IMG/VR virus record: IMGVR_UViG_3300037234_000551
Location: 1-64,000 of that record
Direction: 5' to 3' (one strand)
From: a virus
Length of the DNA stretch: 64,000 bases
The notes under the pieces are model-generated. The model saw only the letters and a program-made list of their open reading frames with translations, had not been told where the DNA came from and searched no databases. The translations under genes and the position numbers were made by a program. Below, piece by piece: positions 1 through 42,526 of this stretch; position 1 is the first letter of the stretch, and each line of letters starts with the position of its first letter.

Positions 1-140
1 AAGAATTACTGAGAGACCCTGGCGGTATTATTATTACCGTTTTGTTGAAAAGGACTCCTCGAAGGCTGAAAAGTATGCAGGTAAATATCCTGAACTTTTA
101 ATCAGAAGGGGGGTAGTGGGTCGAATAATCGGAGAGAGAA

Positions 141-2176: not shown

Positions 2177-2190
2177 AGGAGTCAAATACA

Positions 2191-2631
2191 ATGGTAACGC
2201 TATCATCTATGAATAAGTTAGTCACTTCGGGAAAGTTGTACATTGACAGCGCTGCCGAAAGAGAAGTGAAGAGAGTGATCAAGTATGCTGAGAGTCATAT
2301 TGTTTCTCACTCTGCATTAGAAGCAATGGTGGCTGGTCGGGTAACTCCAGTAGGAGATAAAAGGGGTCACGTTTGTACATTCCGAAGGAATTATAGAATT
2401 GTTTACTCTATAGAAGAGCAGGCGATTGGATTGTGCAGACACCTTTCAGTATCACTCGCCCAAACTAAGCATGTTCCCGGTAAAGCTGCGTTGAATGAGA
2501 TATTAAAGTTGTTTGGTTTTGATGGGGATATTAGGGATTGTTATGTTTGGGTAGAGGAGCTTGAGCACGTTAATGCTGTCAATATTGTCCAACCTTTAAA
2601 GTGGGATAGAGAAACTTCCACTATTACCTAA
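2191..2631 (+). CDS. hypothetical phage protein (RHLSVS motif)
   Basis: AAGGAG RBS, 146-aa ORF, CRHLSVS motif. Confidence 0.55.
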   Translation: MVTLSSMNKLVTSGKLYIDSAAEREVKRVIKYAESHIVSHSALEAMVAGRVTPVGDKRGHVCTFRRNYRIVYSIEEQAIGLCRHLSVSLAQTKHVPGKAALNEILKLFGFDGDIRDCYVWVEELEHVNAVNIVQPLKWDRETSTIT

Positions 2632-2700
2632 AAATCCATTTAGTAAAAATTCAATTACAAGAGGAGTGCGTCATTTGAATCCTTGAAAGGAGGGTGTTAC

Positions 2701-3267
2701 ATGAAGAAAGATAAGGAAATAAATTTTTCACCGGCATTCACTATATTCATAGTGATTGTTTTAACGACACTATTTTCATTTTGGTTTATGTCACCAGCTA
2801 TAGGACAGGATGGACAGAAGAGCAAGGACGTTCAATCTGTGCCTGCTCCTTCACAGAAAGCAGTGAAGATTGAACCTCCTGTTCCAGCGACGAATCCAGT
2901 TCAACTTAACAATCTTCTGACTGCAGCTCAGGTAAACCCGACTGCAAGGGTTGTTAGTTTAGCAACTGAAAAAGGACCAGCCAAGTTTCACAAATTTAAT
3001 GCCCCAGCTGATGGAAATGGTAAGTACATGGTCTACGAGGGGTCAGAGGGTGCAGTCAATGCAATTGTGGAGAGTGGCAAGGTTGTGGGTTCTGAATCAG
3101 TTGGTCTTGGTATAGAAGACTTGGGTCAGGTGCAGACAGGAGATATTTCAAGCCCTGACTGTTGGCACTGTTATCAACTAGATGGTAGAAATCACTGTCT
3201 GTATGAAAAGTGTGCTACAAAAAGTTCACAACCAAAACCAGATAGTACAATACCAAATATACAGTAG
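2701..3267 (+). CDS. secreted/membrane protein with C-terminal CWHCY-x6-HC-x4-C motif
   Basis: GGAGG RBS before ATG 2701; hydrophobic N-terminus; CWHCYQLDGRNHCLYEKC; paralog of the next ORF. Confidence 0.6.
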   Translation: MKKDKEINFSPAFTIFIVIVLTTLFSFWFMSPAIGQDGQKSKDVQSVPAPSQKAVKIEPPVPATNPVQLNNLLTAAQVNPTARVVSLATEKGPAKFHKFNAPADGNGKYMVYEGSEGAVNAIVESGKVVGSESVGLGIEDLGQVQTGDISSPDCWHCYQLDGRNHCLYEKCATKSSQPKPDSTIPNIQ

Positions 3268-3276
3268 AATGGAGGG

Positions 3277-4203
3277 TTGATCATGAAGAAACTAACAATA
3301 CTGCTTATGGCAGTCTTTCTGGCGTTGTGTGTGGGTGTGGGTATTGCCCAAATGAATAAGGGCGATCTTATCAACAAGCAAACTGAAAGCGTTCAGCAGG
3401 GTAGGGTATTAACTGACTCGGATTCTGGTGAGGCTTCCAGAGCGAAGAAAGGAATGGAGAAGCCTAATCCCAAGGAGGAGTCTGTTGTTAGTGGTGCGAA
3501 AAAAGAACCTTTGATGCCTGGAGATGAGATTATGGTTATTTTGTATCCATCTCCACCCGCTTTTGATCCAAGTCCAACATATCAGTTTGGCGATGGAATA
3601 AGAGGGACTCGACCTCCTTCAGAGATGAATAAAGCTGACCTTATAGAGTCACTGCACGCTAAGAAACCACCCAAAGGTTATCGTTATGTACTTGGATTTA
3701 CTCCGAAAGAGGATGGCCCTTTTGTCGTCTACTCTACTCGTAATGGCACTATTACTGCCATGTTGAAAAAGGGAAGTAAAAAACCTACAAAGTATGAACA
3801 CCAAGGTTTGATAATAGATGACTTGGCTATAGAAACTGACCAGCGCTCCAAAAAGCTCTTTGTAGGTGGACTCAGTGTAGTACCCGGAGGTACGAGCGAG
3901 GGAGATGGTGGTCCCACTTGTTGGCATTGTTATGAAATAAATGGGGAAACTCATTGTTTTGAAGTGGAGTGTCCCTTTGATATTTCAAGCGGTGAAGGTG
4001 AACCATCTGTAAGTCCTGAAGTACTCAGGATAGTGACACCGAAAGATCCTGGTTCAAGTCTTCCACCTGGTAGTACTGTCCCTGGTGGTCCTGGTGGTAG
4101 GAGTACTGGTACAACATCAACTGGCGATCCTGGAAGGGGAACTCAAGATGGTTCGTCTTCTTCCAGTTCATCAACAACAATTGAAAGAGGAGGAGGTGGT
4201 TAA
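3277..4203 (+). CDS. secreted protein with CWHCY-x6-HC-x4-C motif and Gly/Ser/Thr-rich tail
   Basis: Signal peptide MKKLTILLMAVFLALCVGVGIA; CWHCYEINGETHCFEVEC; low-complexity C-terminus. Confidence 0.6.
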   Translation: MIMKKLTILLMAVFLALCVGVGIAQMNKGDLINKQTESVQQGRVLTDSDSGEASRAKKGMEKPNPKEESVVSGAKKEPLMPGDEIMVILYPSPPAFDPSPTYQFGDGIRGTRPPSEMNKADLIESLHAKKPPKGYRYVLGFTPKEDGPFVVYSTRNGTITAMLKKGSKKPTKYEHQGLIIDDLAIETDQRSKKLFVGGLSVVPGGTSEGDGGPTCWHCYEINGETHCFEVECPFDISSGEGEPSVSPEVLRIVTPKDPGSSLPPGSTVPGGPGGRSTGTTSTGDPGRGTQDGSSSSSSSTTIERGGGG

Positions 4204-4216
4204 TTTGAGAGGGAGG

Positions 4217-4555
4217 ATGTTACTATTCTCATTGATGTTGTTGTTTTTCTCATTCATGGTCTTTTTTCTATTCTCTAGCATTTCTTTTGCTCAGAACATT
4301 ACGATTACTGGACAGGGGAGTGAGTTGAGCGTTCAGATTGACGATGGTACTTGTATTGAGTTTAAGATGGAGGTGAAAGAGAATCAAGTTACTCTAGCCG
4401 ACGGAAAAACTGTTACCCATAGTCGGGTGGAGTATAAGTACTGGCGTCCATGTGGTGAGAAAAAGTGGACCAAATATGAGAAATATGATATTAGTCTGCT
4501 GAGGAAACCAAGTAGTACACCAATTATCAGTGTTCCAAAAAAGAAATATCTCTAG
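4217..4555 (+). CDS. secreted hypothetical protein
   Basis: 3' part of ORF 4085..4555; GGGAGG RBS before ATG 4217; signal peptide ending SFA-Q. Confidence 0.5.
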   Translation: MLLFSLMLLFFSFMVFFLFSSISFAQNITITGQGSELSVQIDDGTCIEFKMEVKENQVTLADGKTVTHSRVEYKYWRPCGEKKWTKYEKYDISLLRKPSSTPIISVPKKKYL

Positions 4556-4561
4556 CCGAAT

Positions 4562-4674
4562 CGCTCGGGGTCAAATGATTCCAAAAATTCACAGAAAGAA
4601 AATTTATGGATGTATTGCAATCCGGTGAATAGAAGCAGGTGGTGTGGAAGACCACGACCCCGAGTGTTTTCTTT
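4562..4674 (+). ncRNA. candidate multi-branched structured RNA or terminator-like element
   Basis: CGCTCGGGGTC (4562-4572) pairs with GACCCCGAGTG (4656-4666), enclosing inner stems ATTCAC/GTGAAT and GTGGT/ACCAC, followed by T-runs. Confidence 0.35.
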
Positions 4675-4834
4675 TATGGAGGGGCCATGATACTTTATGT
4701 TTTACAAAAGTCTACTAGTTCTTTATGTAAGTATTGTGAGGAATATACATACTTACTCATCGAGAAGGAGCCAAATCCTTTAGTTACTCCAATTTTCTTT
4801 ATCTGTTTTAATTGTAAAAGAGTTTTTCAAGCAG

Positions 4835-5644
4835 GTGTTGGAGAACTTAAACCAGAAATGGAGGATGAGGATGTTATTTCACCTGACTGAGCATTGTACA
4901 TTAGAGTGCCCTCATTGCTTTGTCGAATCTAGTCCTAATGAGAGGCATGCAAACGACCATGTAGTTCGGAAGTTTGTTAGGTTCGCTAAATCAATGGGTG
5001 CTTTCAAAATTGGTATTGCTGGAGGTGAACCAACTGAGCACCCTATGTTTGTGACCTATATGAACTATATCCTAAAGAAACTTTCATCTCAGTATCGAGC
5101 CATTGTTCTGATGACTAATGGAAGATTTCTTTTGGACTCACATCTTATGAAGAAACTTATCAATATGACTAAGAAGTACCCATTGTTTATTCAGGTATCA
5201 GCTCTAAAGGGAATTTACCCTCGAAGAGATGAAACTATTGAGTTCTACCATATGAGTGAGAAGAGGTTTCGCCAAGATAGTGTAGTGCTTATTGAGGATA
5301 TAACGGCAATGGAAAATTTAGGTCGAGCAGTTGGGAAAGATTGGTCACATCTTGGCGAACTCTATCAAAGAATGAGTCCGATGTGTTTTAATATCTTTTC
5401 AGTTGTCAGGTCTGGCCAATTTTCAACTTTAGTAGAGTCACTCCAGTGGGTTGAAGCTAATGTAAGTGGTTCATTTTGTAAACCTTTAATTGCGTGGGAT
5501 GGAAGTTTTTACGCTGGAGAAACGCCACTCTGTTTGAAACTTGGGAACATTCTTACTGATACTCCTGAGCAAATCTTTGAAAACATCAAAGAAAATAGCC
5601 CTTGTGGACAGTGTGGTCGCGATGTTCCACCAATGCCTTATTGA
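4835..5644 (+). CDS. radical SAM protein with Cys-containing C-terminal extension
   Basis: CTLECPHC (CX3CX2C), GGEP motif, MTNG, C-terminal CGQC; real start probably 4865 or 4871. Confidence 0.85.
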   Translation: MLENLNQKWRMRMLFHLTEHCTLECPHCFVESSPNERHANDHVVRKFVRFAKSMGAFKIGIAGGEPTEHPMFVTYMNYILKKLSSQYRAIVLMTNGRFLLDSHLMKKLINMTKKYPLFIQVSALKGIYPRRDETIEFYHMSEKRFRQDSVVLIEDITAMENLGRAVGKDWSHLGELYQRMSPMCFNIFSVVRSGQFSTLVESLQWVEANVSGSFCKPLIAWDGSFYAGETPLCLKLGNILTDTPEQIFENIKENSPCGQCGRDVPPMPY

Positions 5645-5652
5645 GGTGAATA

Positions 5653-5859
5653 ATGGAACTATGGCTAAAGAAGATATTTATATTGTTTCCGTGGATACTA
5701 TTGAGAGTGGTTAGACCTATTCTTTCAGAAGATCATCCTTCAAGAGATTGGACTTGGACTAGTCTTGCTGAACACGGTACTGATATTTTGTACTTTTTTG
5801 CAGGATGTTACTGGTTTAGCATTCTTTTAATTATATTGTGTCTAAAAATAATATTCTAG
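5653..5859 (+). CDS. small membrane protein
   Basis: GAGGTG RBS; two hydrophobic stretches. Confidence 0.45.
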   Translation: MELWLKKIFILFPWILLRVVRPILSEDHPSRDWTWTSLAEHGTDILYFFAGCYWFSILLIILCLKIIF

Positions 5860-5903
5860 GAGGTGCCCGTAGAAAAAATAATTTTTGAAAGGAGGATGTT
5901 ACT

Positions 5904-6308
5904 ATGAAAAAAATTCTGTTAGTTATAATTGTGCTTCTAGCTGGTTGTGTTATGACACCTGAGAAGCAGAATTATATTGACTCAATTGGACAAGAACCTT
6001 TTGTATTTGAAGTACCAAAGAGGAAAGTGGATAGTTCTTGGAATCGGGCGATAAATTGGATAACCAATTATAGCTCTACTAGCATTCAGATGATTACAGA
6101 AGACAAAATTATTACATTTCAGCCCCCAAAGAATTCTGCAACGGTCGGTTATATTGTTAAGAAAGAGGAGGCAAGAGGCGGTTTTGAGTTTAATATAAGC
6201 TGTTTTGGGGGCAGTCAAGCCTTTGAGAAAGTGACAATAAATTGTCGCTCATTAGTCCATTATATTAGGTGGGGTGTTAGTCCGCCTGATGGTGTGATAA
6301 AACCTTAG
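5904..6308 (+). CDS. lipoprotein
   Basis: AGGAGG RBS; MKKILLVIIVLLAGC lipobox. Confidence 0.7.
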   Translation: MKKILLVIIVLLAGCVMTPEKQNYIDSIGQEPFVFEVPKRKVDSSWNRAINWITNYSSTSIQMITEDKIITFQPPKNSATVGYIVKKEEARGGFEFNISCFGGSQAFEKVTINCRSLVHYIRWGVSPPDGVIKP

Positions 6309-6320
6309 AAAGGAGAATCA

Positions 6321-6545
6321 ATGGATAAGTTGAGGGCGAACTTAAAATATAATATGACTAAACAACAAATTGGAAAGTTCGAGAAGTCCTTGGCAATTGA
6401 AGAGAAAAAATTGATTCTCCAGCAGGCCATTGTTGATGGAATTAAATCTCAACTAGAAGATCTCTATCAGGAGGCTCAAGACTATGAGCAACGTCGAAAC
6501 GACCTTCTCGAATTCCCGAGTCGAAAAGACCTACAAGATGGTTGA
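6321..6545 (+). CDS. small coiled-coil hypothetical protein
   Basis: AAGGAG RBS; heptad-rich 74 aa. Confidence 0.5.
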   Translation: MDKLRANLKYNMTKQQIGKFEKSLAIEEKKLILQQAIVDGIKSQLEDLYQEAQDYEQRRNDLLEFPSRKDLQDG

Positions 6546-6723
6546 GAAAGACGGTATAATGGGAATTAAATGTCTGGTTTGTAATATGACCAGTTATTTT
6601 CCTATGGATATCGAAAAGAAATATTGCGAAAACTGTAAAAGATTTCATAATGAAATCTCTCATAAGTAGGCGCACTAGGGGCAGAGTATCAAAATTAACT
6701 TCCCTTGAAAGGAGGGTTAAACG

Positions 6724-7386
6724 ATGAAGAGGATGTTACTAATAGGATGCCTGATTACCATTCTGGCATTCAGTGCTTTCGGATGTTCTGGGGGTTCAAA
6801 AGACGCCCACGCCGAAGAGATGCCACCATACAAACCCATAAGCATCCGTATGTTTGACTTGTATGCTGCAACCGAGGATGGTCATGTATTCTATCGACCT
6901 CACGATACAAAGGTATGGGTTACGGATGAGGATGAACAAGCCTTTGTGAACGGAGACAAACTCAGGTATGGTGGGAAATACGGTATGGACGGAATGGTTG
7001 AAGCTCCAATTATTATATGTCGACCTGTTGATTACCGTTATTCGCTTCAGATAGCTGAAACAGAGGACTATGGTGTAACCTCGGATCAGATAACGGTATA
7101 TCCGCCTCCAACTGATTTAGTGGTGCAGGAACAGCATGTTGATATTAGGGTGTATTCACCCGAAGGAAAATTGCTCTGGTATTTCAATGGTGTTTATATT
7201 AGTTACAATGATTTGGACATATATAAGGCTGGTGGAAACTTGAGGTTCCGAGCTGTAGGGATAGATTGGTTATCTCAGGGTACCTACCTTGTAAAGGCTC
7301 CAATTGTAACTATCACTGAGGACCTTTTGATTGGGCCAATTACACGGTCTGATGAAGATGGTCCGCAAGGTGATTTGCTAGACTAA
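6724..7386 (+). CDS. lipoprotein
   Basis: GGAGG RBS; signal peptide with AFGC lipobox followed by SGGS linker. Confidence 0.65.
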   Translation: MKRMLLIGCLITILAFSAFGCSGGSKDAHAEEMPPYKPISIRMFDLYAATEDGHVFYRPHDTKVWVTDEDEQAFVNGDKLRYGGKYGMDGMVEAPIIICRPVDYRYSLQIAETEDYGVTSDQITVYPPPTDLVVQEQHVDIRVYSPEGKLLWYFNGVYISYNDLDIYKAGGNLRFRAVGIDWLSQGTYLVKAPIVTITEDLLIGPITRSDEDGPQGDLLD

Positions 7387-7391
7387 CGTAT

Positions 7392-7467
7392 CCCGCCGGT
7401 GGGGACCTTTCTAAGGTGGATGGGGATGTGCGCCTCCTGTCCATGTTGCCCTATCGGCGGGTTTTTT
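7392..7467 (+). terminator. intrinsic terminator-like stem with large loop
   Basis: CCCGCCGGTGGGG / CCCTATCGGCGGG (13 bp, two G-U) followed by TTTTTT. Confidence 0.55.
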
Positions 7468-7483
7468 AAGAGGAGTTAAGAGG

Positions 7484-7975
7484 ATGGAACCGAGATATAG
7501 AAAAATGTATTACTCATATGACTTAAATGAAAGGATGTCTGGTCTTGAGATCCTTCTTTACATATTGGCTGCTTTTTTAGTTATAATTATAGCGAATGGG
7601 ATCATAGAACACATGAGGGTTGAACCGAGGACAGTTCCGATTATTGGAATTTCTAAACCTATAATCAAACCTGTAGAACAAATGGATTTGGTTATGGGTG
7701 CAGCTAATGTAAAGAAGATTCGAGAGTCCTGGTACAAGGTTTATTTTTCTGTTATTAACCGTGACGAAAAAGTTTTTACAGGTATTATTCACGCTAACAT
7801 TACTGAAAATGGTCGAGTAACTCAAACTGGAATTTATCCATGTTCTCTTGAATCTGGAGAAGAGAGGCTGGTAACATACTTCACAAATGTTAAACCTACC
7901 TATGTAACATTGAGAATTGAGGGCATGGGTTTAGGTTTTGGTGCGAGATTCAGGGAGGTAAAAAATAAGTTATGA
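7484..7975 (+). CDS. membrane-anchored protein with beta-rich (Ig-like?) domain
   Basis: Single TM segment near the N-terminus, beta-rich remainder. Confidence 0.5.
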   Translation: MEPRYRKMYYSYDLNERMSGLEILLYILAAFLVIIIANGIIEHMRVEPRTVPIIGISKPIIKPVEQMDLVMGAANVKKIRESWYKVYFSVINRDEKVFTGIIHANITENGRVTQTGIYPCSLESGEERLVTYFTNVKPTYVTLRIEGMGLGFGARFREVKNKL

Positions 7976-8247
7976 CTAGTCTTCATAGGAATGTTCCCAT
8001 AGATTTGGTTAGGCAATTTGCTGACCTGGATTCTATTTGTATTGCGGAAGTCGATATTGATGAATCTTATGATAGGCAAATTGAAATAATTGCTATGCAA
8101 GTAGGTCATTGGTCTCAGGAGTGGATGGTGAGAACAGAGTTTCTTACAAGTACAGTTGTCCCTCTTGGTGTCAAAATTATATTGGTAAATATGACGATTG
8201 AGGATGGCATAAGAGTTTGTATGTATGAGGCCATTCTTAGGTCGTAG
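7972..8247 (+). CDS. hypothetical protein
   Basis: ATGA overlap with the previous gene, 91 aa. Confidence 0.5.
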   Translation: MTSLHRNVPIDLVRQFADLDSICIAEVDIDESYDRQIEIIAMQVGHWSQEWMVRTEFLTSTVVPLGVKIILVNMTIEDGIRVCMYEAILRS

Positions 8248-8259
8248 GGAGGAGCGAGG

Positions 8260-8643
8260 ATGTTACACAGAAAAAATATTCCATTTATAGATATAGTTAT
8301 TCTTGCATTTGTTGTGGTTTTGGCTCTAGTGGTCGGTTTTTTGCCGGGGTGTGCCATCAAGCAACCTAGTACTATGACAGTTGATGAACGACTTGAACCT
8401 TATCGTTACCTCATCAGAGATACACTACTTAGAAGTAATGAGGTGGGCGTCTTTGTTGATAACAATTATTATGACCTTGACAATGAGCAGAGGATAAATT
8501 TTGCTCAAAATTTGTCATGGTCATATTACCCACGTGTGGTGGTTGTCAAAGATGTAAAAACTAACTATTTACTTATGACTATTAGTGAAGATAGGCATAT
8601 ACAGTTGATTTGGCAACAGGAGTACAACAAAGGGGATAAGTAG
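8260..8643 (+). CDS. lipoprotein
   Basis: GGAGG RBS; hydrophobic signal ending LPGC. Confidence 0.6.
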   Translation: MLHRKNIPFIDIVILAFVVVLALVVGFLPGCAIKQPSTMTVDERLEPYRYLIRDTLLRSNEVGVFVDNNYYDLDNEQRINFAQNLSWSYYPRVVVVKDVKTNYLLMTISEDRHIQLIWQQEYNKGDK

Positions 8644-8907
8644 GTGGTAAAAAGAAAAACTACAAAATTTGGGTATGACGTACCGAAGTTTGATCCGAAG
8701 AAACCTATTCTTGAGACCGTTATTGGTGGTGGGAGAATTGCTAAATGTTGTCCCACCTTAGGTCCTAGACGATGCCCGTATATAAGGTCGACCAAGACGG
8801 GTATAATGAAGTGTTCCCAATACACTGAACCCTTGAAAAAATGGCAACGGAATGGGTATTGTTATATGTATGATACCTATAATTGGGAGGAGGATAATAT
8901 TGATTAA
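8644..8907 (+). CDS. small Cys-rich hypothetical protein
   Basis: 87 aa, CC/C/C/C pattern, abuts previous gene. Confidence 0.45.
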   Translation: MVKRKTTKFGYDVPKFDPKKPILETVIGGGRIAKCCPTLGPRRCPYIRSTKTGIMKCSQYTEPLKKWQRNGYCYMYDTYNWEEDNID

Positions 8908-9133
8908 ATTCACTTCAACAGGCAAGAACACTACTTTGATAGGACTTGGCATTTCGGAGGAGAATGTCAGAAGACTCAAAGCAGCTCAACCCATTTTGAT
9001 CAAGGGTAGCGAGTTAGGTTTTGACTGGTTGGAGATTCTGATTTTCTATGGTAAGGACGAAGAGGAGTTGAAAAAAACAGTTAAGGCTACCTTAGCAGTT
9101 GATAAACTTATCAGCAAAGCGTCGGAGGAGTGA
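8852..9133 (+). CDS. hypothetical protein
   Basis: ORF with LIGLGISEENVRRLK segment; real start probably the TTG near 8900 after GGAGG. Confidence 0.5.
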   Translation: MGIVICMIPIIGRRIILIKFTSTGKNTTLIGLGISEENVRRLKAAQPILIKGSELGFDWLEILIFYGKDEEELKKTVKATLAVDKLISKASEE

Positions 9134-9136
9134 AAG

Positions 9137-9619
9137 ATGTGGAAAAAGGAAACTCAACATCAAGAGGAGACAGAAAATCCAAAGATAACCTTAGAAGTTG
9201 ATGCTCAACTAGCCTTCGCTCCTCACTTGAAAGAGTTGAAAAAGCAGACCCTTCGTTTTACTCTCCAAGATACAGCCGTAACTATAACTGAGACCTCAAA
9301 AGATGGTACTGAAAGAAAAATTGGAGAGATTGTTGGTTCTATGGGCGGAACAATTGAGATAAGAGATGAGATATTAGAGGAGACGTGGGTCATTCGTCCA
9401 TTAGATTTGTGGAAAGCATTTGCCAAAGTGAGGGAGCCTTTAAAAGGGAAAACACAACCATGTCCATATTGTAAGAGGCCAATTCCTGACAGTGGTGTGT
9501 TTGGACTACCAACTTACACAGACGTCCCTGAGAATCATGCAAAGGACTGTCCTATAAGAGAGATAATGGAAGTCAGACTAGCTGATCTAGAGAGGGGGAC
9601 ACATGAAAGCGAAGTGTGA
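9137..9619 (+). CDS. hypothetical protein with C-terminal Zn finger
   Basis: CPYC...H-x3-C; GGAGG RBS. Confidence 0.55.
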   Translation: MWKKETQHQEETENPKITLEVDAQLAFAPHLKELKKQTLRFTLQDTAVTITETSKDGTERKIGEIVGSMGGTIEIRDEILEETWVIRPLDLWKAFAKVREPLKGKTQPCPYCKRPIPDSGVFGLPTYTDVPENHAKDCPIREIMEVRLADLERGTHESEV

Positions 9620-9806
9620 TAGATGTGGTAAAGATAATGGTGGCATATCTATTATGTCATACTTTAATACAGATGAGATATGTATGGAGTGTGATGAAAA
9701 GGAAAGAGAACACCCAAAATTCAGAGAGGCCCTTGAAGCAGATCAAAAGGCTGTTAGGGCAGGGAATTTCAACTTCCCTGGTATAGGAAAACCAGCTGAC
9801 TTATAG
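9603..9806 (+). CDS. conserved small Zn-binding hypothetical protein
   Basis: CDRC...IMSYFNTDEICMEC...HP...GNFNFPGIG pattern typical of a widespread mobile-element family. Confidence 0.65.
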   Translation: MKAKCDRCGKDNGGISIMSYFNTDEICMECDEKEREHPKFREALEADQKAVRAGNFNFPGIGKPADL

Positions 9807-10091
9807 GAGTTACAAAGGAGTAGAAGAATGCCAGATTCTACGTATGTTTTAGGCTCAAGTCGTTCAGAGACAGCAGTGGTGAGAGATTATATAACGATGC
9901 AAGGAGGACGAGTTAGTCTGCTTTTGTACTTAGTAGAAGTTGACTCACCAATTAAGATCCTTTTTCACGAAATAGTCCCTATTGGTCAGATTGATCAAGT
10001 AACAGATAATACCCTTAAAGATTTGGAGTTATAATTTTACTGGTATTGGCAAACCAGCTGACTTATAGATGAGAGGAGTGAAGAAAATATT

Positions 10092-10532
10092 ATGCAAAAG
10101 ATAATTGTGGGCACCATATTGTTTCTAGCTATGGTATTTCCGAGAGTAGCTTTAACTAGTCCAGTTGTTAAGATGTTCCAGCCTTTGGGTTGACTGTGTT
10201 GTTCTAAGTGGGTGGGACACCTACAAGATAATGGATTTGAGGTCATTAAGACTTACAAGAGTGAACAAGAGATGAGGACTCTTAAACGAGAAAGCATGGT
10301 GCCAGAAGAATTAGAGTCCTGTCATACGTCTTTGGTAGACGGATATATCATTGAGGGTCATGTACCTGGAAGTGCTATTGCAACACTTCTAAAGGAGAGA
10401 CCAGAAATAGTTGGTCTTGCGGTGCCAAAGATGGCCCTTGGTCCGCCCGGGATGGAAGGCACTAAACCTCTATCATACAGTATCTGGGCCTTTACAGATT
10501 ATGGCAGGATATGGGTATATCAGAAAAAGTGA
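10092..10532 (+). CDS. DUF411 (CopG-like metal-binding) periplasmic protein, probable selenoprotein (in-frame TGA at 10191-10193)
   Basis: ATG 10092 gives signal peptide MQKIIVGTILFLAMVFP, then PLG-TGA-LCCSKWVGHLQDNGFEV matching family PxCGCCxxWxxHLxxNGF; SCHT, IEGHVP and GLAVP..GPPGME motifs; hairpin downstream of TGA. Confidence 0.8.
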
Positions 10533-10548
10533 AAGGAGGATAAGGAGG

Positions 10549-11319
10549 ATGAGAAGATTATTTTCGATAATATTGGTGTTTGTGTGTTTGTTGTTGATTC
10601 CATTTGCAGCTAATGCTAAAGATAAACCAATGGATGAGTTTCAGCCCACGCCAGCTTCCTATATCTGGTATGATGCCAGGACCTACGCAGACGATTCTTT
10701 ATCGAGGAGGGTAGGTGGATGGCACTTTGTTGTAGAATGGGCAGGAGATCTTCCTACTTTTGATGATGCGCAAGCTATAGTTGATAAAATCAAGAAAATT
10801 GAGTTCGTCAATAATACAACAGGTCTTGAACTAGTTTTTCTTCCTGAGACATTGCAAAGATATATCTGGAGGGGAAGTCATAGCGTTGGTGCCTACTTAT
10901 GGCTGGGCCACGAATGGATTGCTCAGGGTGAATGGACAGCAACCGTATTCGCAAAGGGTGGAAATTATAGTAAGGATTTCTCCCTTACTAAAGATGAGAT
11001 CCTTGTACCCAAACCTCCATTTATTCAGATTATAGATACAGAAGCAGTCACAGGTGGTACACTAATTACATATAAGGCCCCACTCACTGACTGGGAAGGT
11101 CCCATAAGAGTCATGCTTAGAATTATGACAGACGGGAATGATGATGGTTTCCGTGATGAATGTATAGATCAAATTAATCTTGCTGGTCCTTCAGATCAAC
11201 TCCAAACCGTGGTAGTACCTTATTCTGGAAGTGAAGTGGAAGGAAGAATGGAGTATAGGTATACTATAGGTACGGTTATTGGTGTAAGCCGAACAGTTAT
11301 GTATTTTGATTTTCCATAA
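10549..11319 (+). CDS. secreted hypothetical protein
   Basis: AAGGAGG RBS before ATG 10549; signal peptide ending ANA-K. Confidence 0.65.
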   Translation: MRRLFSIILVFVCLLLIPFAANAKDKPMDEFQPTPASYIWYDARTYADDSLSRRVGGWHFVVEWAGDLPTFDDAQAIVDKIKKIEFVNNTTGLELVFLPETLQRYIWRGSHSVGAYLWLGHEWIAQGEWTATVFAKGGNYSKDFSLTKDEILVPKPPFIQIIDTEAVTGGTLITYKAPLTDWEGPIRVMLRIMTDGNDDGFRDECIDQINLAGPSDQLQTVVVPYSGSEVEGRMEYRYTIGTVIGVSRTVMYFDFP

Positions 11320-11390
11320 GAGTTTTGAAAGGGGCATTTAAGTTTGAAATTTATGGGTATTAAAAATAAAAAATAGAAGGAGGTGGTAAA

Positions 11391-11642
11391 GTGAAAAAGT
11401 TAATGGCATTTTTGGTGGTGTTGTCCTTGACTGTTGTCGTGACTTACTGGGACGGAAAGGAGATACGAACAACTACAGCAGATAAGATGTACACTGGTCA
11501 AGTTGGTATATCACTTTCTGACATTGGTAACCCAGCTGATCGAAATCCGAGGATAAGACCAAAGACTATACTTCCCTATCGTCATATTATTAGAATAGAC
11601 ATCGTTGATGATGGGAAAATCGTACCCTGGTATCGCAGATAA
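11391..11642 (+). CDS. small secreted/membrane protein
   Basis: AAGGAGG RBS, GTG start, hydrophobic N-terminus. Confidence 0.55.
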   Translation: MKKLMAFLVVLSLTVVVTYWDGKEIRTTTADKMYTGQVGISLSDIGNPADRNPRIRPKTILPYRHIIRIDIVDDGKIVPWYRR

Positions 11643-11884
11643 TGGAATATGATCCATGTGTTGGTTGCGGTTTTTGTTGTCTTGAAGCACCTTGTATTGC
11701 TGCTAGTTATTATAACTGGATTGAAAATGGTCGTTGTAGTAAACTCAAGTGGGATGAAGAGGCTAATCGGTACTGGTGCTTACAGGCAAAGGAAAACAAA
11801 CCCTTTGCAATAATGATATACGTCGGAGAAGGGTGTTCGTCAAATTTGAACACTTGGCGAAAAAATGTAAAGGATAGGGGATGA
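11642..11884 (+). CDS. CxxCxxCC (YkgJ-like) putative Fe-S/Zn-binding protein
   Basis: PCVGCGFCC motif plus further Cys residues. Confidence 0.6.
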   Translation: MEYDPCVGCGFCCLEAPCIAASYYNWIENGRCSKLKWDEEANRYWCLQAKENKPFAIMIYVGEGCSSNLNTWRKNVKDRG

Positions 11885-11897
11885 GGGAGGAGGATTT

Positions 11898-12572
11898 ATG
11901 AAAAAGTTATCTGATGTGAATTTTACGAGAGTCTTGGTAGTTTTACTGGCAGCATTTGCTGTCATTGCATGGTCGTGGGGTTTTTCGGATAATACTGTTG
12001 TGCAGAAACAGACTTATTCGTCTGAGTCATCTGGTAGTGCTACATCCGAGTGCAATTGTTGTGGTGCCGCTGATGGGGGCAACTTGAATGTTTGTGATGG
12101 GGATGGTCAGAGATTAGGATTTCTGGTCTCCCATGAAGCAAACGGTAACTGGACTGAGGTCTATGTTCCAGAGGTCAATGCAATAATCAAAGTGAGTTGC
12201 TCATTTAGTCAGGAGAACTATGTTCCTGATAATGAGAGAATCTACTTTGATGATGAAAACTGCGAAGGTAATGCATATGTGGCAACTGGACTGTTCACTC
12301 AAAACTTTAATGATATTAATGTTCTGATTCTGAATGTGGATGGAGATGCTGAGAGATTTTTCAGAGTCTCTGATCCAACTCCTTGTAGTACCACATTTGC
12401 TGCATCACTGGAACCTAATGGGAGTCCCAATCTTCAGTCGGAACTTAATAACTCGGGCAATTGTGTTGCTACAAATGGTGTACCGAGTAAGGTATTTCCT
12501 GTGGATGAAGTGACAGACGATATGCCATTCAATTGGCCACCGGTTTGTCCATGGAGATATTCAGCAAACTAG
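11898..12572 (+). CDS. secreted Cys-rich protein
   Basis: GGAGG RBS; N-terminal hydrophobic segment; multiple Cys. Confidence 0.6.
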   Translation: MKKLSDVNFTRVLVVLLAAFAVIAWSWGFSDNTVVQKQTYSSESSGSATSECNCCGAADGGNLNVCDGDGQRLGFLVSHEANGNWTEVYVPEVNAIIKVSCSFSQENYVPDNERIYFDDENCEGNAYVATGLFTQNFNDINVLILNVDGDAERFFRVSDPTPCSTTFAASLEPNGSPNLQSELNNSGNCVATNGVPSKVFPVDEVTDDMPFNWPPVCPWRYSAN

Positions 12573-12587
12573 TTTGTAGAGGGGAGG

Positions 12588-12806
12588 GTGAAATTATTTA
12601 TGCAGAAGCCTTTGGATTTCCGAGTAGCTCATGCGCAGAAGATTTGTCAATTAGCTGCCCAGTTTGGTACAACAAGAGCAGCTGAAATTTTGAAAATTGA
12701 CCGGTCAGAAGTTTATCGAGCAATAGGGCAAAATCCGGATCTTGCTTATGAAGCAGGATTCAAGTTCCCTAGAAGGAGAAACAAAAAGGCTAGAAAGCAT
12801 GTTTAA
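12588..12806 (+). CDS. small HTH-like protein
   Basis: TTRAAEILKIDRSEVYRAI helix-turn-helix pattern. Confidence 0.5.
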   Translation: MKLFMQKPLDFRVAHAQKICQLAAQFGTTRAAEILKIDRSEVYRAIGQNPDLAYEAGFKFPRRRNKKARKHV

Positions 12807-12898
12807 CGATAGGCGGCAGTCGAGTTTGGCGGGATGCAACCAAATTGGATGCAACCAAGACTCGATTGCTGCCTTATTTTTTTCCGAGGGAGGTAATA

Positions 12899-13309
12899 AT
12901 GAGGGGCAGAAAAGCAAAACTTAATAGGAATAAAACAATTTTAGAACTTAGACTTCAGTCAGGTTGGTCTTTGAATCAGATTGGTGATAAGTATAATTTA
13001 TCTAAACAACGAGTTAGTCAAATTTGTCAAATGTGGGCACCCCGTTTTGGTCTTGAAGAGGAGTTAGAGCAACACATAACTGAAGAGAAATTACAAATGT
13101 TACTTAGAAAGTTGGATAGAGAGCAAAAGGAAGAAACCAAGAAGATGATGAATCAAGTCGAGAAAGATCAGCGTTATATGAATGTGCTCTATTTGATAAA
13201 GGTTGAGGGGAAAACACATCGGGAAACTGCTAAGTTGACCCGTTTACATAGAAATACCATTAACCGTATTAGTAATCACGAATGGGATAATTACAAACAC
13301 TATTTTTGA
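12899..13309 (+). CDS. DNA-binding protein with two sigma-region-4-like HTH motifs
   Basis: WSLNQIGDKYNLSKQRVSQI and THRETAKLTRLHRNTINRI; GGAGG RBS before ATG 12899. Confidence 0.7.
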   Translation: MRGRKAKLNRNKTILELRLQSGWSLNQIGDKYNLSKQRVSQICQMWAPRFGLEEELEQHITEEKLQMLLRKLDREQKEETKKMMNQVEKDQRYMNVLYLIKVEGKTHRETAKLTRLHRNTINRISNHEWDNYKHYF

Positions 13310-13331
13310 CTATTAGAGGGAGGAGGCAACA

Positions 13332-13574
13332 ATGGAATATGATGAAGAAGCCTTGGCGGGGATTAACATCGACGAACCTGTAATGTTTGTGTCTCATTCT
13401 AAGTTAGAACGGTCGGGTGATTCACTCTATAGGTCGGAGTGTCCCGTATGTCTTAAAGGCGTTTTTCTTATGAGACGTAACGAGAAGACTCTTCATCTAG
13501 AAGAGCATGACAACTGCATACTTTGTGGGCAGAGGGTGTTTTATGATGACCTGGAGGATGGGGTCTTAGTATGA
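13332..13574 (+). CDS. small Zn-ribbon protein
   Basis: CPVC...CILC. Confidence 0.55.
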   Translation: MEYDEEALAGINIDEPVMFVSHSKLERSGDSLYRSECPVCLKGVFLMRRNEKTLHLEEHDNCILCGQRVFYDDLEDGVLV

Positions 13575-13584
13575 AGTAGGGAGG

Positions 13585-15183
13585 ATGTTAATGAGGCATA
13601 TCAATAAGATTGCCAGCAGGTTGAGGCTGCTCTCATGTGTGAAACTTGTTAATTGTTGTAGCCTAATAGTAGATACGCCCGGTCTCCCTACTCATTTTGA
13701 AGGCTATGAAGTCAAGCCTGAGTTAATCGACGGTTCAAAATTAAGGTTTATAGGTCCAGACCTTCATGATAAATGGAAGATCTATATTCTTAAGGGAGAT
13801 GAGTGGGTACGCTATATGAGACCAATTTCAAGCGGTATGTTAGAGGGTTTTATTAAAAATCATTATGAGAAAATTCATACAAAAGTAAAGGAGGAAGTTA
13901 TGGTTGGTAAGAATCTTGCTGCATCAGTTACAAAGTATAATATGCTCATGCTCCAAATTACAGCTATGAGTCCGAGGAGTATATTTACTATTGTTGACCT
14001 TGTGGAAGCTCTAGAGAAAGTTGGAGCCAAGATAGATGAGCACACTATTTACAATTATTTGGAACCTCTGATTCAGGCAGGTTATGGTCTACGAAAGATG
14101 AGACCTGTGGGAAAAAAACGCTCCTATTATCAGGTTACTACAACTATTCCTATAGGTATAAGTACTTCACAGGCTAGAGATGAGGCGAAAAAACTTATTA
14201 AGTTGAGGGGAGGAAAAATTATAACTGAGGTTGTTAATTACACACCTGTTCGTAAGGTATTGTTTGATGACTCAAAAGCAGAAGATGCGATAAAGTATTA
14301 CTCGTCCCTACCAACTAGAAAGAGCTGGAGCAGTGTAAGAAAGAAAGCGGTAGGGAGGAAGGGACTGAGTCTATTTGATTCTATGTATTACACTCTACTA
14401 GGATTGGATAAAGGATGTATATTTGTTCTTGAGGATTTGAGGAGTCTTTTGGCGGGTCAGCAAGTGCATATAAATAAACCTGCTCAAAGACAATATATGG
14501 ATATCTTATTTAGAGCAAATTGTGGTATTGATAAAAGGAAAACTAGTCATGTGCTTGGTCGGATTTTTTACTTGATCTCCGATGAACTCCCTCCAAAAAC
14601 TGATGATTTAACATTATCATTTTTTAAAGAACTTGGAAAAGGTGCCCGTAGGAAGATTGAGTATGTTGATTATCCAATTCGCGTTGAAATGAAATTTAAA
14701 GATGATCAGTTGAAGGCGATCTGGGAATCTATTTGTGATTCTAAGGTGCCTGGAGATGATAAGTTGGAGGAGTCCATATCCCGACTTGAGGAAGAAGAGT
14801 TGGATAGTTCCTTCTTAGATCGTCAGGATACAGACGAAGATTTGGGAAGACAAACCTTTACATTTCTGACAAGGCAGATGCAAAGGATTGAACAACTCCA
14901 AGCTAGAGTTGAAGAGTTGGAGAATGCGCCAGATCTCAGACTTGAACTTGAGTCAAGAGAATCTGAAATAAAGAAACTTAATGAAACAATTACTGATCGG
15001 TTTGTTCGAATTACTGATCTGGAAAAAGAAGTGAGGCAAGTTAGGGGAGAGAGTACTAAGAAGTCCGTTCGAATTGCTGAATTGGAGTCGTACTTGAAGA
15101 AGGCTAAAAAAGATTCCGACACGATGACAATTGCAGAGAGAATGAAAGCATTGAAAGAAAAGGTGCGAGGAGAGAGGTTGTAA
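13585..15183 (+). CDS. protein with repeated winged-helix-like segments and C-terminal coiled coil
   Basis: Two similar segments (IFTIVDL..TIYNYLEPLIQAGYGLRK; IFVLEDL..AQRQYMDILFRANCGIDK); long heptad tail; paralog of 31205..32149. Confidence 0.55.
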   Translation: MLMRHINKIASRLRLLSCVKLVNCCSLIVDTPGLPTHFEGYEVKPELIDGSKLRFIGPDLHDKWKIYILKGDEWVRYMRPISSGMLEGFIKNHYEKIHTKVKEEVMVGKNLAASVTKYNMLMLQITAMSPRSIFTIVDLVEALEKVGAKIDEHTIYNYLEPLIQAGYGLRKMRPVGKKRSYYQVTTTIPIGISTSQARDEAKKLIKLRGGKIITEVVNYTPVRKVLFDDSKAEDAIKYYSSLPTRKSWSSVRKKAVGRKGLSLFDSMYYTLLGLDKGCIFVLEDLRSLLAGQQVHINKPAQRQYMDILFRANCGIDKRKTSHVLGRIFYLISDELPPKTDDLTLSFFKELGKGARRKIEYVDYPIRVEMKFKDDQLKAIWESICDSKVPGDDKLEESISRLEEEELDSSFLDRQDTDEDLGRQTFTFLTRQMQRIEQLQARVEELENAPDLRLELESRESEIKKLNETITDRFVRITDLEKEVRQVRGESTKKSVRIAELESYLKKAKKDSDTMTIAERMKALKEKVRGERL

Positions 15184-15204
15184 CTGAATTAATTAGAGTA
15201 AAGT

Positions 15205-15246
15205 AAGGAGTAGCCGTCAGGAGGCCCGGACACTACTCTTTTTTTT
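15205..15246 (+). terminator. intrinsic terminator
   Basis: GAGTAG...CTACTC stem followed by a run of 8 T. Confidence 0.55.
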
Positions 15247-15321
15247 GTTTCTTTAAGAACAAATTAAAAATGTTACTATAGTAAATTCTTGAACAAATAC
15301 CAGGTTATCCGGGAGATAAAA

Positions 15322-16008
15322 ATGGGTTATCCGCAACATCCAGAAACAATTACTATTAAAAATAAGTTCTACCCGAAAGGTTTACGGGAGATAGATACAT
15401 ATAAATATTATCAAAAGATGAAGAGTAAACTTTTGAAGGAAGTTGCCGGAAGAGACCTGATGTTTTACATTGCCACCGATGTTGATAAACTTACTATCAG
15501 ACGATCAGGAAAAGGGACTGAATACATACGTTTAACTAATGCAAATTGGGATGATGAGATTCACGGTCGAGTTGTTAGCATTCACTCAGCAATGAAGAAG
15601 ACTGACAATATTGCCATTGTTGATATTGATACTGATAATTTTGGTAAGGCAAAGAAGGCGGTCGCTGACTGTTATAAAGTTCTCTTAAAGAGAGTTCCGA
15701 TTGTTGATAGAGTTCAAGTCAGATTCACAGGTAAGGCTAGTTTTCATTTGTTTTGTAAGTTGAATAGGACAATGAATGTTGACTCAATTCGACTTCTATT
15801 GAAGAAAGTTCTTTCAACTTCTCCAGAGTTGAGAAATTATGCTGTTGAGTTTAAGAGAACCCCGGGTCAAGTAAATCTTGATCTTGCACCAAATAAATTT
15901 CGTGGCAATTTTATTACATTACATTCATTGTCGACTTGGGGATTGAAATGTATAGAAGTTAAACTAAATAAGGTATCGTCTTTTACGCCAAATATGGCGA
16001 AAATTTAA
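15322..16008 (+). CDS. LigD-type (AEP superfamily) primase-polymerase domain protein
   Basis: K.FYP..L...D.Y.YY N-terminus, DID catalytic motif, FTGKASFH (motif II), VNLD; GGAG RBS before ATG 15322. Confidence 0.75.
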   Translation: MGYPQHPETITIKNKFYPKGLREIDTYKYYQKMKSKLLKEVAGRDLMFYIATDVDKLTIRRSGKGTEYIRLTNANWDDEIHGRVVSIHSAMKKTDNIAIVDIDTDNFGKAKKAVADCYKVLLKRVPIVDRVQVRFTGKASFHLFCKLNRTMNVDSIRLLLKKVLSTSPELRNYAVEFKRTPGQVNLDLAPNKFRGNFITLHSLSTWGLKCIEVKLNKVSSFTPNMAKI

Positions 16009-16154
16009 TGAATGATTTCAACAACTTGAAAATTCATTGTAATTATACAGAACGGCAGTGGATGAATTTTTAAATCTAATAATTTCAATATGTTAGAGTG
16101 AAGATTTCAACAACTTTTTTGTTTTCGAGAAACAATTGAATAAGGAGCAACTGA

Positions 16155-16634
16155 ATGAAGGAAATTTTAGTTTTCACAGACGACATATCTAAGTACGGGG
16201 TCTATCGAAGTTACCTCGAAACTGGAGTGTCGAGTACGAGTTTAAGGGCTACTCTAGATGAAGTTTTTCATCATATTGCAAAGAAGCCAGTTAATGTTGT
16301 GATTGTAGATACTGAAGCACCCTGTGTCCGGAAGAAAGATGTAAAGTTTCTTAGGACTCTAGTTGAAAAAGATATTGAAGTTTTTCTTATGGTTGATGAA
16401 ATTACTGATGAATGTCTGATTGCTTGTAACAAGCATGATCGTGTTACTGTTGTAAAGAAACCATTTGATGCAGACATTCTTGTTGCTAAATTAGGTATAG
16501 GTATGGACTTAGATGCTGCAGAGAAAGATATTGATCAAGAGGCGGTCTGTAGTTTTGATAGTCCATTTTATGATGCAGAAGAAGAACAAGATACCCAATG
16601 TTTGGAGGGAAATGACGATGAAGCATACGGATAA
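16155..16634 (+). CDS. CheY-like receiver-domain protein with acidic tail
   Basis: ILVFTDD...VVIVD...KKPF receiver-fold signature. Confidence 0.6.
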   Translation: MKEILVFTDDISKYGVYRSYLETGVSSTSLRATLDEVFHHIAKKPVNVVIVDTEAPCVRKKDVKFLRTLVEKDIEVFLMVDEITDECLIACNKHDRVTVVKKPFDADILVAKLGIGMDLDAAEKDIDQEAVCSFDSPFYDAEEEQDTQCLEGNDDEAYG

Positions 16635-17067
16635 AGACATGATTATTCTTGAGGAGTTAATTAGACGGGCCTATGAGCATGTGAGGCCATTCAGTTATCA
16701 TAAAGACTTAGAGTGGTTAAGTGATCCGGAACTCCGAGCGGGTCTTTTTGAGAAATTTCCCAAGTGTTATCTAAGTCTTTCAATCAATAGGAAAGACGTT
16801 CCGTTTTTCCCAATCTGTAATCGGATTGGGTTCGTCGATCCTAGGATTGTAATGTTTTCAATGAAACTTGCAAATAAGTTAGCTACTCTTGGAGATCCTA
16901 GGGTTGATGTAACCAACTTGCAGGGTGTGACAAAGAGGCTAGAGTTTTTGCATAGGAAGTACTCTAAAGAGGTTCCAAAACCAGAAGACATGGCTGTCAA
17001 GAAGGCCATGATAACCAGAATGCTGAGTAAAATTAAGAAATATTTGGCCGCTCAAAAGGGTGAGTAA
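16513..17067 (+). CDS. hypothetical protein
   Basis: ORF ending at the RNAP start; real start probably near 16612. Confidence 0.55.
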   Translation: MLQRKILIKRRSVVLIVHFMMQKKNKIPNVWREMTMKHTDKDMIILEELIRRAYEHVRPFSYHKDLEWLSDPELRAGLFEKFPKCYLSLSINRKDVPFFPICNRIGFVDPRIVMFSMKLANKLATLGDPRVDVTNLQGVTKRLEFLHRKYSKEVPKPEDMAVKKAMITRMLSKIKKYLAAQKGE

Positions 17068-20069: not shown

Positions 20070-20072
20070 GAG

Positions 20073-42323: not shown

Positions 42324-42526
42324 TGATAGAAGTCAAGTCGTGTATTCTAACTATTGGCAGAATATCAATGTACACTTCTAAGACAGTAGCTGAAACTAAG
42401 GGTTATAAGTCGAGATATCTAAAAAGGAGTAAAGAACCTATCGTAAATAATCCCTGTGATAGTTGCCTGATTATTTCCACTTGTACTGTCTGGTGTGATG
42501 AGAAGAAAGAGTATCTTTGGGAGTGA
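42323..42526 (+). CDS. small CX2CX5CX3C family protein
   Basis: NPCDSCLIISTCTVWC. Confidence 0.55.
   Translation: MIEVKSCILTIGRISMYTSKTVAETKGYKSRYLKRSKEPIVNNPCDSCLIISTCTVWCDEKKEYLWE

Follow-up and report, generated by a model that had tools for sequence, protein, structure and literature searches.

A CopG/DUF411-type gene with an in-frame UGA at a conserved cysteine position in a jumbo-type phage from marine sediment: a probable selenoprotein gene

Introduction

Does a bacteriophage carry a gene for a selenoprotein? The question is raised by a locus at positions 10092–10532 of a 64,000-nt stretch of viral DNA (the window hereafter; positions 1 to 64,000 of IMG/VR record IMGVR_UViG_3300037234_000551), in which a reading frame of the DUF411 family is crossed by a single TGA codon. 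An earlier note, made from the letters of the sequence, had read the locus as a DUF411 selenoprotein gene with UGA at a conserved cysteine. This reading is supported by the analysis described here: the same TGA is shared by homologues, it is present in a contig of run X4, and it is followed by a hairpin that appears specific to the TGA forms of the family. We consider it probable (roughly 0.7) that 10092–10532 is an intact CopG/DUF411-type gene in which the first Cys of the CxCC motif is replaced by selenocysteine (U34-L-C36-C37), carried by the phage as an accessory gene. That the gene is a genuine Sec-type CopG gene can be said with high probability; decoding of this phage copy as Sec in the host is likely, conservation being the basis for this part of the reading.

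A reading frame that continues across UGA

On the + strand, a single frame extends from ATG 10092–10094 to a TGA at 10530–10532, and its sole interruption is the TGA at 10191–10193. The full gene, for a CopG/DUF411 precursor, comprises 146 codons (33, the UGA and a further 112), followed by the terminating TGA. A Shine-Dalgarno-like AGGAG is found on the same strand at 10074–10078, 13 nt 5' of ATG 10092, which is a long spacing. Residues 1–22 (10092–10157), consisting of MQK, a hydrophobic core and PRVALT, form a putative signal peptide with an inferred cleavage site. In the predicted structure pLDDT is 52–57 at residues 1–20 and above 90 thereafter, and a comparison of sequences revealed hydrophobic N-termini in all homologues. 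The U-L-C-C motif (10191–10202) opens with the internal UGA, taken here as the codon of selenocysteine U34; its peptide context is ...MFQPLG-U-LCCSKWVGHL.

Gene calling under table 11 splits this frame into a 33-aa ORF and a 106-aa ORF (10212–10532, + strand) that starts at GTG 10212 in the same frame and is in all probability a truncation artefact. The terminating UGA at 10530–10532 is followed by AAGGAGG, twice, as ribosome-binding site and by ATG 10549 of the next gene. Inspection of the sequence after UGA 10530 revealed no hairpin resembling the one at 10208–10224 described below; UGA would thus act as a normal terminator in this mRNA except where such a hairpin accompanies it.

Protein family and fold

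For the analysis of family and fold, the query was the read-through protein with C in place of U and with two artefactual C-terminal residues beyond the real stop. Residues 74–121 matched Pfam family PF04214 (DUF411) with 77.8 bits against a cut-off of 27, and no NCBIfam family was matched. Residues 28–140 matched PDB entry 6wis_A (E 1e-22) continuously across the TGA, with U34 falling on the first Cys of NCGCC. The earlier note had placed ATG 10092 in frame with the 10212–10532 ORF, with TGA 10191–10193 alone between them, and had put the stop on the first Cys of the family motif. The coordinates are confirmed, and the ungapped alignment of homologues agrees with the match to 6wis_A as to the position of the stop.

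In an alignment with 25 full-length homologues, the columns of C34, C36, C37, C77, H78, H90, M114 and M121 are invariant; a second homologue alignment has the Cys-His pair, the further His and the two Met either invariant or conserved at 90% or above. On the + strand, the corresponding codons lie at 10320–10325 (C77-H78), 10359–10361 (H90) and, for the two conserved Met of the family, within 10431–10454 (M114 at 10431–10433, M121 at 10452–10454). As to CxCC itself, C36 and C37 are present and the column of the first position, invariably Cys elsewhere in the alignment, has a UGA codon here, so that the motif is complete only if the UGA is decoded as Sec (or Cys).

The AlphaFold model (pLDDT 89.3, pTM 0.80) places strand beta-1 before the TGA, at residues 25–30, and helix 1 after it, at residues 35–46. 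When the model was used as a Foldseek query, 6WJE and 6WIS occupied ranks 1–5 with target-normalised TM scores of 0.89–0.91, rmsd of 1.4–1.8 Å and 36–37% identity. The read-through product of 10092–10532 is a complete CopG/DUF411 protein of the thioredoxin-fold type, putatively exported.

Distribution of the TGA codon within the family

Eleven of the 38 database homologues are proteins of 101–108 aa that begin at the same V-G-H-L, and some of these truncated homologues are only ~50% identical to the window protein. At the DNA level, the same TGA at the same column was identified in 61 other loci (60 of them distinct in sequence) from metagenomes and GTDB genomes, against 97 loci with Cys, proportions that are biased towards TGA forms because the DNA was fetched with patterns derived from such forms. 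The recurrence of TGA at this column in homologues, one of the checks that the earlier note had named, is borne out by these 61 loci. Metagenome contigs contributed 80 loci, 33 with TGA, 43 with Cys and 4 in which the motif is off the contig; the 80 loci from GTDB species genomes include 28 with TGA, 51 with Cys and one without the motif. The motifs of the 33 metagenomic TGA loci are UGCC (24), UDCC (5), UECC (2), UACC (1) and ULCC (1), the last in L002, a metagenome contig of 3146 nt that is the nearest DNA relative of the phage copy. The TGA loci printed all encode, in frame and 5' of the TGA, a hydrophobic N-terminus and the I/VxVY(K/Q)xPx motif of beta-1. The carriers of TGA forms are metagenome-assembled genomes (MAGs) labelled delta proteobacterium, Binatia, Acidobacteriota/Vicinamibacterales, Gemmatimonadota and Chloroflexota, and the family includes at least four TGA subclades. 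All three of the other viral DUF411 loci recovered in the viral scans are Cys forms.

We also looked at the occurrence of SelA (TIGR00474) in the genomes concerned. It was found above the cut-off in 26 of the 28 TGA-form genomes versus 10 of the 22 Cys-form genomes counted, which are the first 22 of 51, the other 29 being outside the count (Fisher p 3e-4, relatedness ignored). One of the two exceptions, G018, contains SelB and a SelD with an in-frame TGA of its own; in the other, G004, none of SelA, SelB and SelD was above the cut-off. Both are MAGs, so the absence of a gene from either is weak evidence.

In a phylogenetic tree of 158 of the 159 rows (one short row was dropped, and the U/C column was left out), the window copy groups with L002 on a long branch (1.57), within a 28-row clade composed entirely of TGA forms (SH-aLRT 93). 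The tree requires at least 13 changes between Sec and Cys, a poorly resolved figure of which the starred branches force only one. The phage copy departs from the family at conserved neighbours of the codon, with L-G-U-L versus P-T-U-G.

A hairpin downstream of the UGA

A SECIS-like hairpin with a 7-bp stem (one G.U pair) and a GGA loop is located at 10208–10224 on the + strand, within codons K39–Q45 (K-W-V-G-H-L-Q). Its parts are GTGGGTG (10208–10214), the loop (10215–10217) and CACCTAC (10218–10224); it starts 14 nt, and its loop 21 nt, after the UGA. The spacing and the G of the loop presumably resemble those of the E. coli element. Taken as a 23-nt segment, the hairpin folds with –9.0 kcal/mol (z –2.75), and 2 of 200 shuffled sequences fold as well; over the full 66-nt stretch the fold does not stand out from shuffled sequences (z –0.49; 59 of 200 shuffles). 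An Rfam scan of 10050–10350 with E up to 10 returned no SECIS family, only three matches at chance level.

Comparison across the family was more informative. Loose SECIS criteria (a loop 16–37 nt from the UGA with G among its first two bases) were tried and set aside, as 30 of 34 TGA forms and 22 of 43 Cys forms passed, which does not discriminate between the two; comparisons at fixed columns and of local MFE were used instead. At the fixed hairpin columns all seven pairs can form in 27 of the 61 distinct TGA forms versus one of the 95 distinct Cys forms. The MFE of a 30-nt segment at the hairpin is –8.75 kcal/mol in TGA forms versus –5.27 in Cys forms (Mann-Whitney p 2.5e-13), the G+C contents being 0.57 versus 0.55. 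When the 61 TGA forms are aligned without gaps, 82.9% of cells retain pairing; with the partners slid, the value is 36–53%. At the closing pair, 31 TGA forms have G-C, 5 have C-G, 4 have U-G and 21 have something else, with compensatory changes. In a marine/Vicinamibacterales clade the His and Leu codons differ and an alternative hairpin forms in a shifted register, its loop of 5–7 nt starting with G.

The covariation is modest, as three pairs show double changes and 33 of 500 shuffles reach that count. Part of the complementarity is forced by the conserved peptide W-V-x-H-L, and Cys forms reach 4–6 of the seven pairs. From these comparisons, the hairpin after the codon appears to be specific to TGA forms, with a signal that is partly confounded by the conserved peptide. 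The element proposed earlier at 10208–10224 is real, its stem and loop lie at the distances from the UGA that had been given for them, and to its description can be added this apparent specificity for TGA forms.

The phage carrier

The source record is viral, 72,602 bases long and, according to CheckV, 23% complete. Its + strand is densely coding under table 11. Two sets of genes resembling those for the beta' and beta subunits of multisubunit RNA polymerase (RNAP) are present, at 17067–24503 and 51977–57907 (Rpb1/Rpb2 domains, PHROG RNAP beta); among known phage RNAP beta proteins, the closest match reaches 33% identity. Topoisomerase II subunits, SbcC, SbcD, a helicase, an HNH endonuclease and radical-SAM-like proteins are also encoded; among the genes of the window none was recognised as structural. 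With its two sets of multisubunit RNA polymerase genes, the contig belongs to a jumbo-type phage. What had been called a virus-like element can accordingly be specified by its two RNAP beta/beta' sets, topoisomerase II and SbcCD.

Five tRNA genes, Trp (cca), Gln (ttg), Cys (gca), His (gtg) and Pro (tgg), were identified by ARAGORN in the 72,602-base record; neither a tRNA-Sec nor a sel gene is present in these 72,602 bases, which represent ~23% of the genome per CheckV. The neighbours of the DUF411 gene belong to no known family, except for a protein with sigma-70 region 4 (12845–13309). Searches seeded with the ORF at 9137–9619 retrieved one contig sharing part of that ORF, with no DUF411 there, and those seeded with the ORF at 11898–12572 retrieved no related contig. 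The downstream ORF (10549–11319) has one relative, with 57% identity. No related phage carrying a DUF411 gene with TGA was found in the viral and neighbour-gene scans.

Habitat and possible host

The stretch or part of it is listed in ten runs: eight from marine sediment, one from sediment and one marine metagenome. The five runs that contain at least half of its sampled words are all from marine sediment. As regards expression, there is no RNA run among the runs listed as containing the stretch.

The best relatives of the protein in GTDB species genomes are 51–52% identical, and none is close. In L002, the DUF411 gene adjoins a lipoprotein-like gene that is 84–89% identical at the nucleotide level to genes of Desulfobacteraceae, Syntrophobacterales and Desulfobacterota MAGs. 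All five Desulfobacterota-type MAGs examined that contain this neighbour gene encode SelA. The same five MAGs yielded no match to the window protein, to the downstream ORF or to the DNA of window positions 1–20000, and no DUF411 gene lies beside their lipoprotein-like gene. The neighbour gene in L002 gives no more than a lead, to an anaerobic and Sec-competent lineage, and does not identify the host.

The marine sediment runs, the radical-SAM-like genes and the position of the closest copy beside a Desulfobacterota-like gene are indirect hints of an anaerobic host. An anaerobic, Sec-using host of the phage is plausible. The earlier note had taken a probably anaerobic host to be implied by the gene, an argument that does not hold, as TGA forms are also present in MAGs of Gemmatimonadota, Vicinamibacterales, Binatia and Chloroflexota.

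Alternative explanations

The alternative that survives best, though still an unlikely one, is that the gene is dead-end cargo: it would have come from a Sec-using bacterium into a phage whose host has no Sec insertion, translation would stop at UGA 10191, and the copy would be silent or decaying. Such an origin would fit the lack of sel genes and tRNA-Sec in the 72,602 bases, the long branch and atypical motif neighbours of the phage copy and the failure to find a related phage with the gene. The comparison with L002 argues against it. The two copies have 81.7% nucleotide similarity, from L002 position 2285 (window 10092) to L002 position 2727 (window 10534), that is, from the ATG to two bases past the stop, and their flanks are unrelated. 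They contain no indels relative to each other, have the same G-U-L-C-C-S-K-W and, at dS of ~0.6, both keep the ATG, frame, TGA, hairpin and stop. For the 33 codons before the TGA dN/dS is 0.31 (dS 0.64), and after the TGA it is 0.19 (dS 0.59). The sole change inside the hairpin, A to G at 10223, converts a U-A pair into U.G and so retains pairing, while a change at 10225 lies just outside. Also against a dead-end origin, the DNA adjoining this closest copy is of a type seen in Desulfobacterota MAGs, and SelA is present in all five of those examined. Judged by these substitutions, the phage copy is not decaying, and it is under purifying selection on both sides of the TGA.

Less probable again is the reading of UGA 10191 by a near-cognate tRNA for Trp or Cys, perhaps one encoded by the phage, which would yield a Cys- or Trp-containing protein and no selenoprotein. 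The phage does carry genes for tRNA-Trp(cca) and tRNA-Cys(gca), at 60184–60421, and UGA is the leakiest of the stop codons. However, these tRNAs have ordinary anticodons, none being tca. The 70 + strand ORFs of at least 100 aa end in TAA (28), TAG (22) and TGA (20), as expected for the standard code, and the DUF411 gene itself ends in UGA, which implies that UGA would be recoded only in the context of the hairpin. Moreover, the TGA-specific hairpin and the association with SelA in cellular carriers point to SelB-dependent decoding.

A very improbable reading is that the gene's actual product is the 106-aa ORF starting at GTG 10212, with an upstream frame that is open by chance. Gene callers do report this ORF in the window, and likewise for 11 of the 38 database homologues. 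Yet beta-1 and U-x-C-C are encoded upstream of GTG 10212, so that the 106-aa protein would have no beta-1, no metal motif (CxCC) and no signal peptide, in a family that is otherwise full-length. Upstream of GTG 10212 the sequence reveals no purine-rich, SD-like motif comparable to AGGAG. The 33 upstream codons are under purifying selection, the homology with L002 starts at the ATG, and every TGA-form locus printed has a signal peptide in frame ahead of the TGA.

Finally, an assembly or sequencing error (the true codon being TGT or TGC) and a reassignment of TGA in the phage can both be dismissed, since run X4, which does not carry the mark of a possible source, has a 320-nt contig that matches 9910–10229 with no differences, L002 has the same TGA, and both standard stop usage and dense long table-11 ORFs speak against reassignment. 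The earlier note had asked for read-level confirmation of the TGA; here the TGA is supported, outside the assembly, by the X4 contig. Runs X4 and X5 also contain, at higher depth, a variant that has the L002-type changes at 10223 and 10225.

Proposed expression and function

The preferred reading, a phage-borne Sec-type CopG gene, can be put as a sequence of events. The ribosome would start at ATG 10092 and make the signal peptide and strand beta-1. At UGA 10191, the 7-bp hairpin 14 nt downstream would recruit the host's SelB.GTP.Sec-tRNA(Sec), so that Sec would be inserted, and translation would terminate at UGA 10530, where such a hairpin is absent. Following putative export, the mature protein of ~123 aa would have Sec at the N-terminus of helix 1, beside C36 and C37 and near C77-H78, H90, M114 and M121. 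By homology to CopG, it may bind a multinuclear cluster of copper (or another thiophilic metal) or perform metal redox chemistry in the periplasm. The phage gene probably descends from the all-Sec bacterial clade of the family, in which case its full expression would be confined to a Sec-competent host.

In a review (PMC7558416), members of the family are described as periplasmic proteins that bind a tetranuclear Cu cluster via CxCC and two Met, and are proposed to oxidise Cu(I) and hand Cu to cuproenzymes; linkage to copA, cusCBA and cueO/cutO is said there to be common in the family, with no strict requirement. The phage protein should, by homology, bind a multinuclear Cu cluster via U/CxCC and the two Met. 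No copper gene is found near the phage DUF411 gene among its neighbours in the window, and none of 47 ORFs flanking 14 bacterial TGA-form loci, within about 2–3 kb, belongs to a copper-related Pfam family. With copper genes absent nearby, the copper function is assigned by homology only.

A gene for an NMT1/THI5-like binding protein is located 3' of DUF411 in 5 of the 14 loci, all of which belong to one unstarred 12-row grouping of the tree.

Significance

The evidence tilts, if only slightly, towards a broader proposition. The locus would be the first named bacteriophage selenoprotein gene, in a jumbo phage of anoxic marine sediment, possibly with a Desulfobacterota-like host whose SelB and tRNA(Sec) would serve, in the course of infection, to place selenium in the copper-cluster site of an exported CopG-type protein; and DUF411/CopG would be an uncatalogued and widespread selenoprotein family in which Se is a ligand of the copper cluster. 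Were this so, a phage accessory gene, and perhaps the useful host range of the phage, would depend on the recoding machinery of the host and on compatibility between SECIS and SelB, and the need for host UGA recoding in phage gene expression would be a testable determinant of host range or fitness. A widespread family with Se at a ligand position of a Cu cluster would join the prokaryotic selenoproteome. It would also offer a natural Sec/Cys pair, with a solved structure of the Cys form (6WIS), for the study of the role of selenium at a copper-thiolate cluster. At present gene callers cut the family to a stub (106 aa here, with its counterparts in the 11 of 38 database homologues), and the phage gene would serve as a warning that catalogues of phage ORFs miss genes of this kind.

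Comparison with known systems

Neither DUF411, CopG, PF04214 nor UxCC appears in Table 1 of a 2026 review, which covers 119 prokaryotic selenoprotein families (PMC13188914). Our literature searches found no work joining DUF411 with the term selenoprotein, and on CopG with selenocysteine there was nothing relevant among the matches listed. No phage selenoprotein was listed in these searches. The selenoproteins of viruses described in one report are the GPx proteins of Molluscum contagiosum and fowlpox viruses (PMC8310308); another reports predicted selenocysteine tRNA genes in three huge wastewater phages and names no selenoprotein (PMC10747093). These huge phages are reported with tRNA-Sec and no named selenoprotein, whereas the present phage has the protein gene and no tRNA-Sec in 72,602 bases. 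Poxviral GPx is likewise a virus-carried, host-derived selenoprotein gene that relies on cellular Sec machinery. However, its carriers are eukaryotic viruses with SECIS elements of the eukaryotic type, unlike the phage gene.

The catalogued selenoprotein families nearest in theme are those that handle metals: the SO_0444 Cu/Zn efflux transporter (UxC), the CopZ-like 2Fe-2S proteins, MerT and the E1-E2 ATPase. With CopG of Pseudomonas aeruginosa (6WIS/6WJE) and CutG of Rhodobacter capsulatus, the phage gene shares the domain, the fold and the ligand positions. The motif is C-G-C-C in CopG and CutG but U-L-C-C, with UGA at the first position, in the phage, and the phage gene differs from both in having no copA, cus or multicopper-oxidase gene as neighbour. 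With genes that are read by SelB through a SECIS element inside the ORF, of which fdhF is the prototype, the phage gene shares a UGA at the position of Cys in homologues and a hairpin downstream within the ORF. The cellular carriers of TGA forms likewise have Sec machinery (SelA, SelB, SelD). As in those genes, the putative Sec belongs to a motif for metal binding or redox chemistry, placed here where a thioredoxin-fold helix has its N-terminus, and the hairpin of the phage gene is a plain stem of 7 bp with a 3-nt loop that starts with G.

Gene neighbourhoods of the DUF411 loci

In the Binatia/'delta proteobacterium' clade (L083, L087, L130, L010 and L011), the Sec-type DUF411 genes, which carry TGA at the first Cys of the CxCC motif, are followed downstream by one or two genes for NMT1/THI5-like periplasmic binding proteins and are preceded by genes for GFO/IDH/MocA oxidoreductases, amidohydrolase_2 proteins or glyoxalases. 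No copper genes were found among the genes flanking DUF411 at these loci. Sec forms of DUF411 may serve a pathway distinct from classical copper resistance.

A Cys-form DUF411 gene was also observed in a GC-rich viral contig (L001; 3-335 and 375-854), where it lies downstream of the 3' end of another ORF. As we read its sequence, the latter may encode the C-terminus of a P-type ATPase; if so, this locus would represent a classical copper context, unlike that of the window.

Directly 3' of the CopG-like gene of the phage (window 10092-10532) is a run of small ORFs (10549-11319, 11391-11642, 11642-11884 and 11898-12572), none of which matched a known family. The first of these (10549-11319, 256 aa) is preceded by a double AAGGAGG and had only one relative, 57% identical, among 5.8 billion proteins. 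Several members of the run have hydrophobic N-termini, and one ORF of 80 aa is Cys-rich (CxxCxxCC...C); the run may constitute an island of exported accessory proteins.

The DUF411 copy most closely related to the phage gene at the DNA level (L002) adjoins a lipoprotein-like gene (L002 1243-2050) that is 84-89% identical at the nucleotide level to genes of several Desulfobacterota-type MAGs. Genes of this type are present in two copies in one MAG (L245 and L249) and have flanks that vary from locus to locus. The lipoprotein-like gene may itself be mobile.

Hairpin conservation and selenocysteine machinery

In a marine/Vicinamibacterales subclade of TGA-form genes (L018, L020, L027, L042, L099, L102, L105, L113, L116, L117 and L127), the 54 nt following the TGA contain a register-shifted hairpin in place of the common SECIS-like one. 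Here, the His codon CAT and the Leu codon CTC pair with an upstream GGGAUG, and the loop of 5-7 nt begins with G. A structure has thus been kept despite the change in sequence.

The Chloroflexia MAG G018, a carrier of TGA-form DUF411, encodes a SelD with one in-frame TGA (G018:C1:3068547-3069479, minus strand), i.e. a Sec-type SelD. SelB is also present in this genome, while a search with TIGR00474 did not detect SelA.

Host hints and phage affiliation

The phage genes for tRNA-Trp(cca), tRNA-Gln(ttg) and tRNA-Cys(gca) are arranged back to back (window 60184-60421), with tRNA-His(gtg) (window 63131-63210) and tRNA-Pro(tgg) (69504-69581 of the whole record) further along; this set of five includes neither tRNA-Sec nor a suppressor anticodon. 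Two radical-SAM-like ORFs (window 4835-5644 and 42517-43593; PHROG matches, E 1e-6 to 4e-9) weakly hint at an anaerobic host.

Two separate sets of multisubunit RNA polymerase genes, with beta'-like and beta-like members (Rpb1 and Rpb2 domains), are located at window positions 17067-24503 and 51977-57907. Two such gene sets are the hallmark of those jumbo phages that have both a virion and a non-virion RNA polymerase; the closest known phage relative is only 33% identical.
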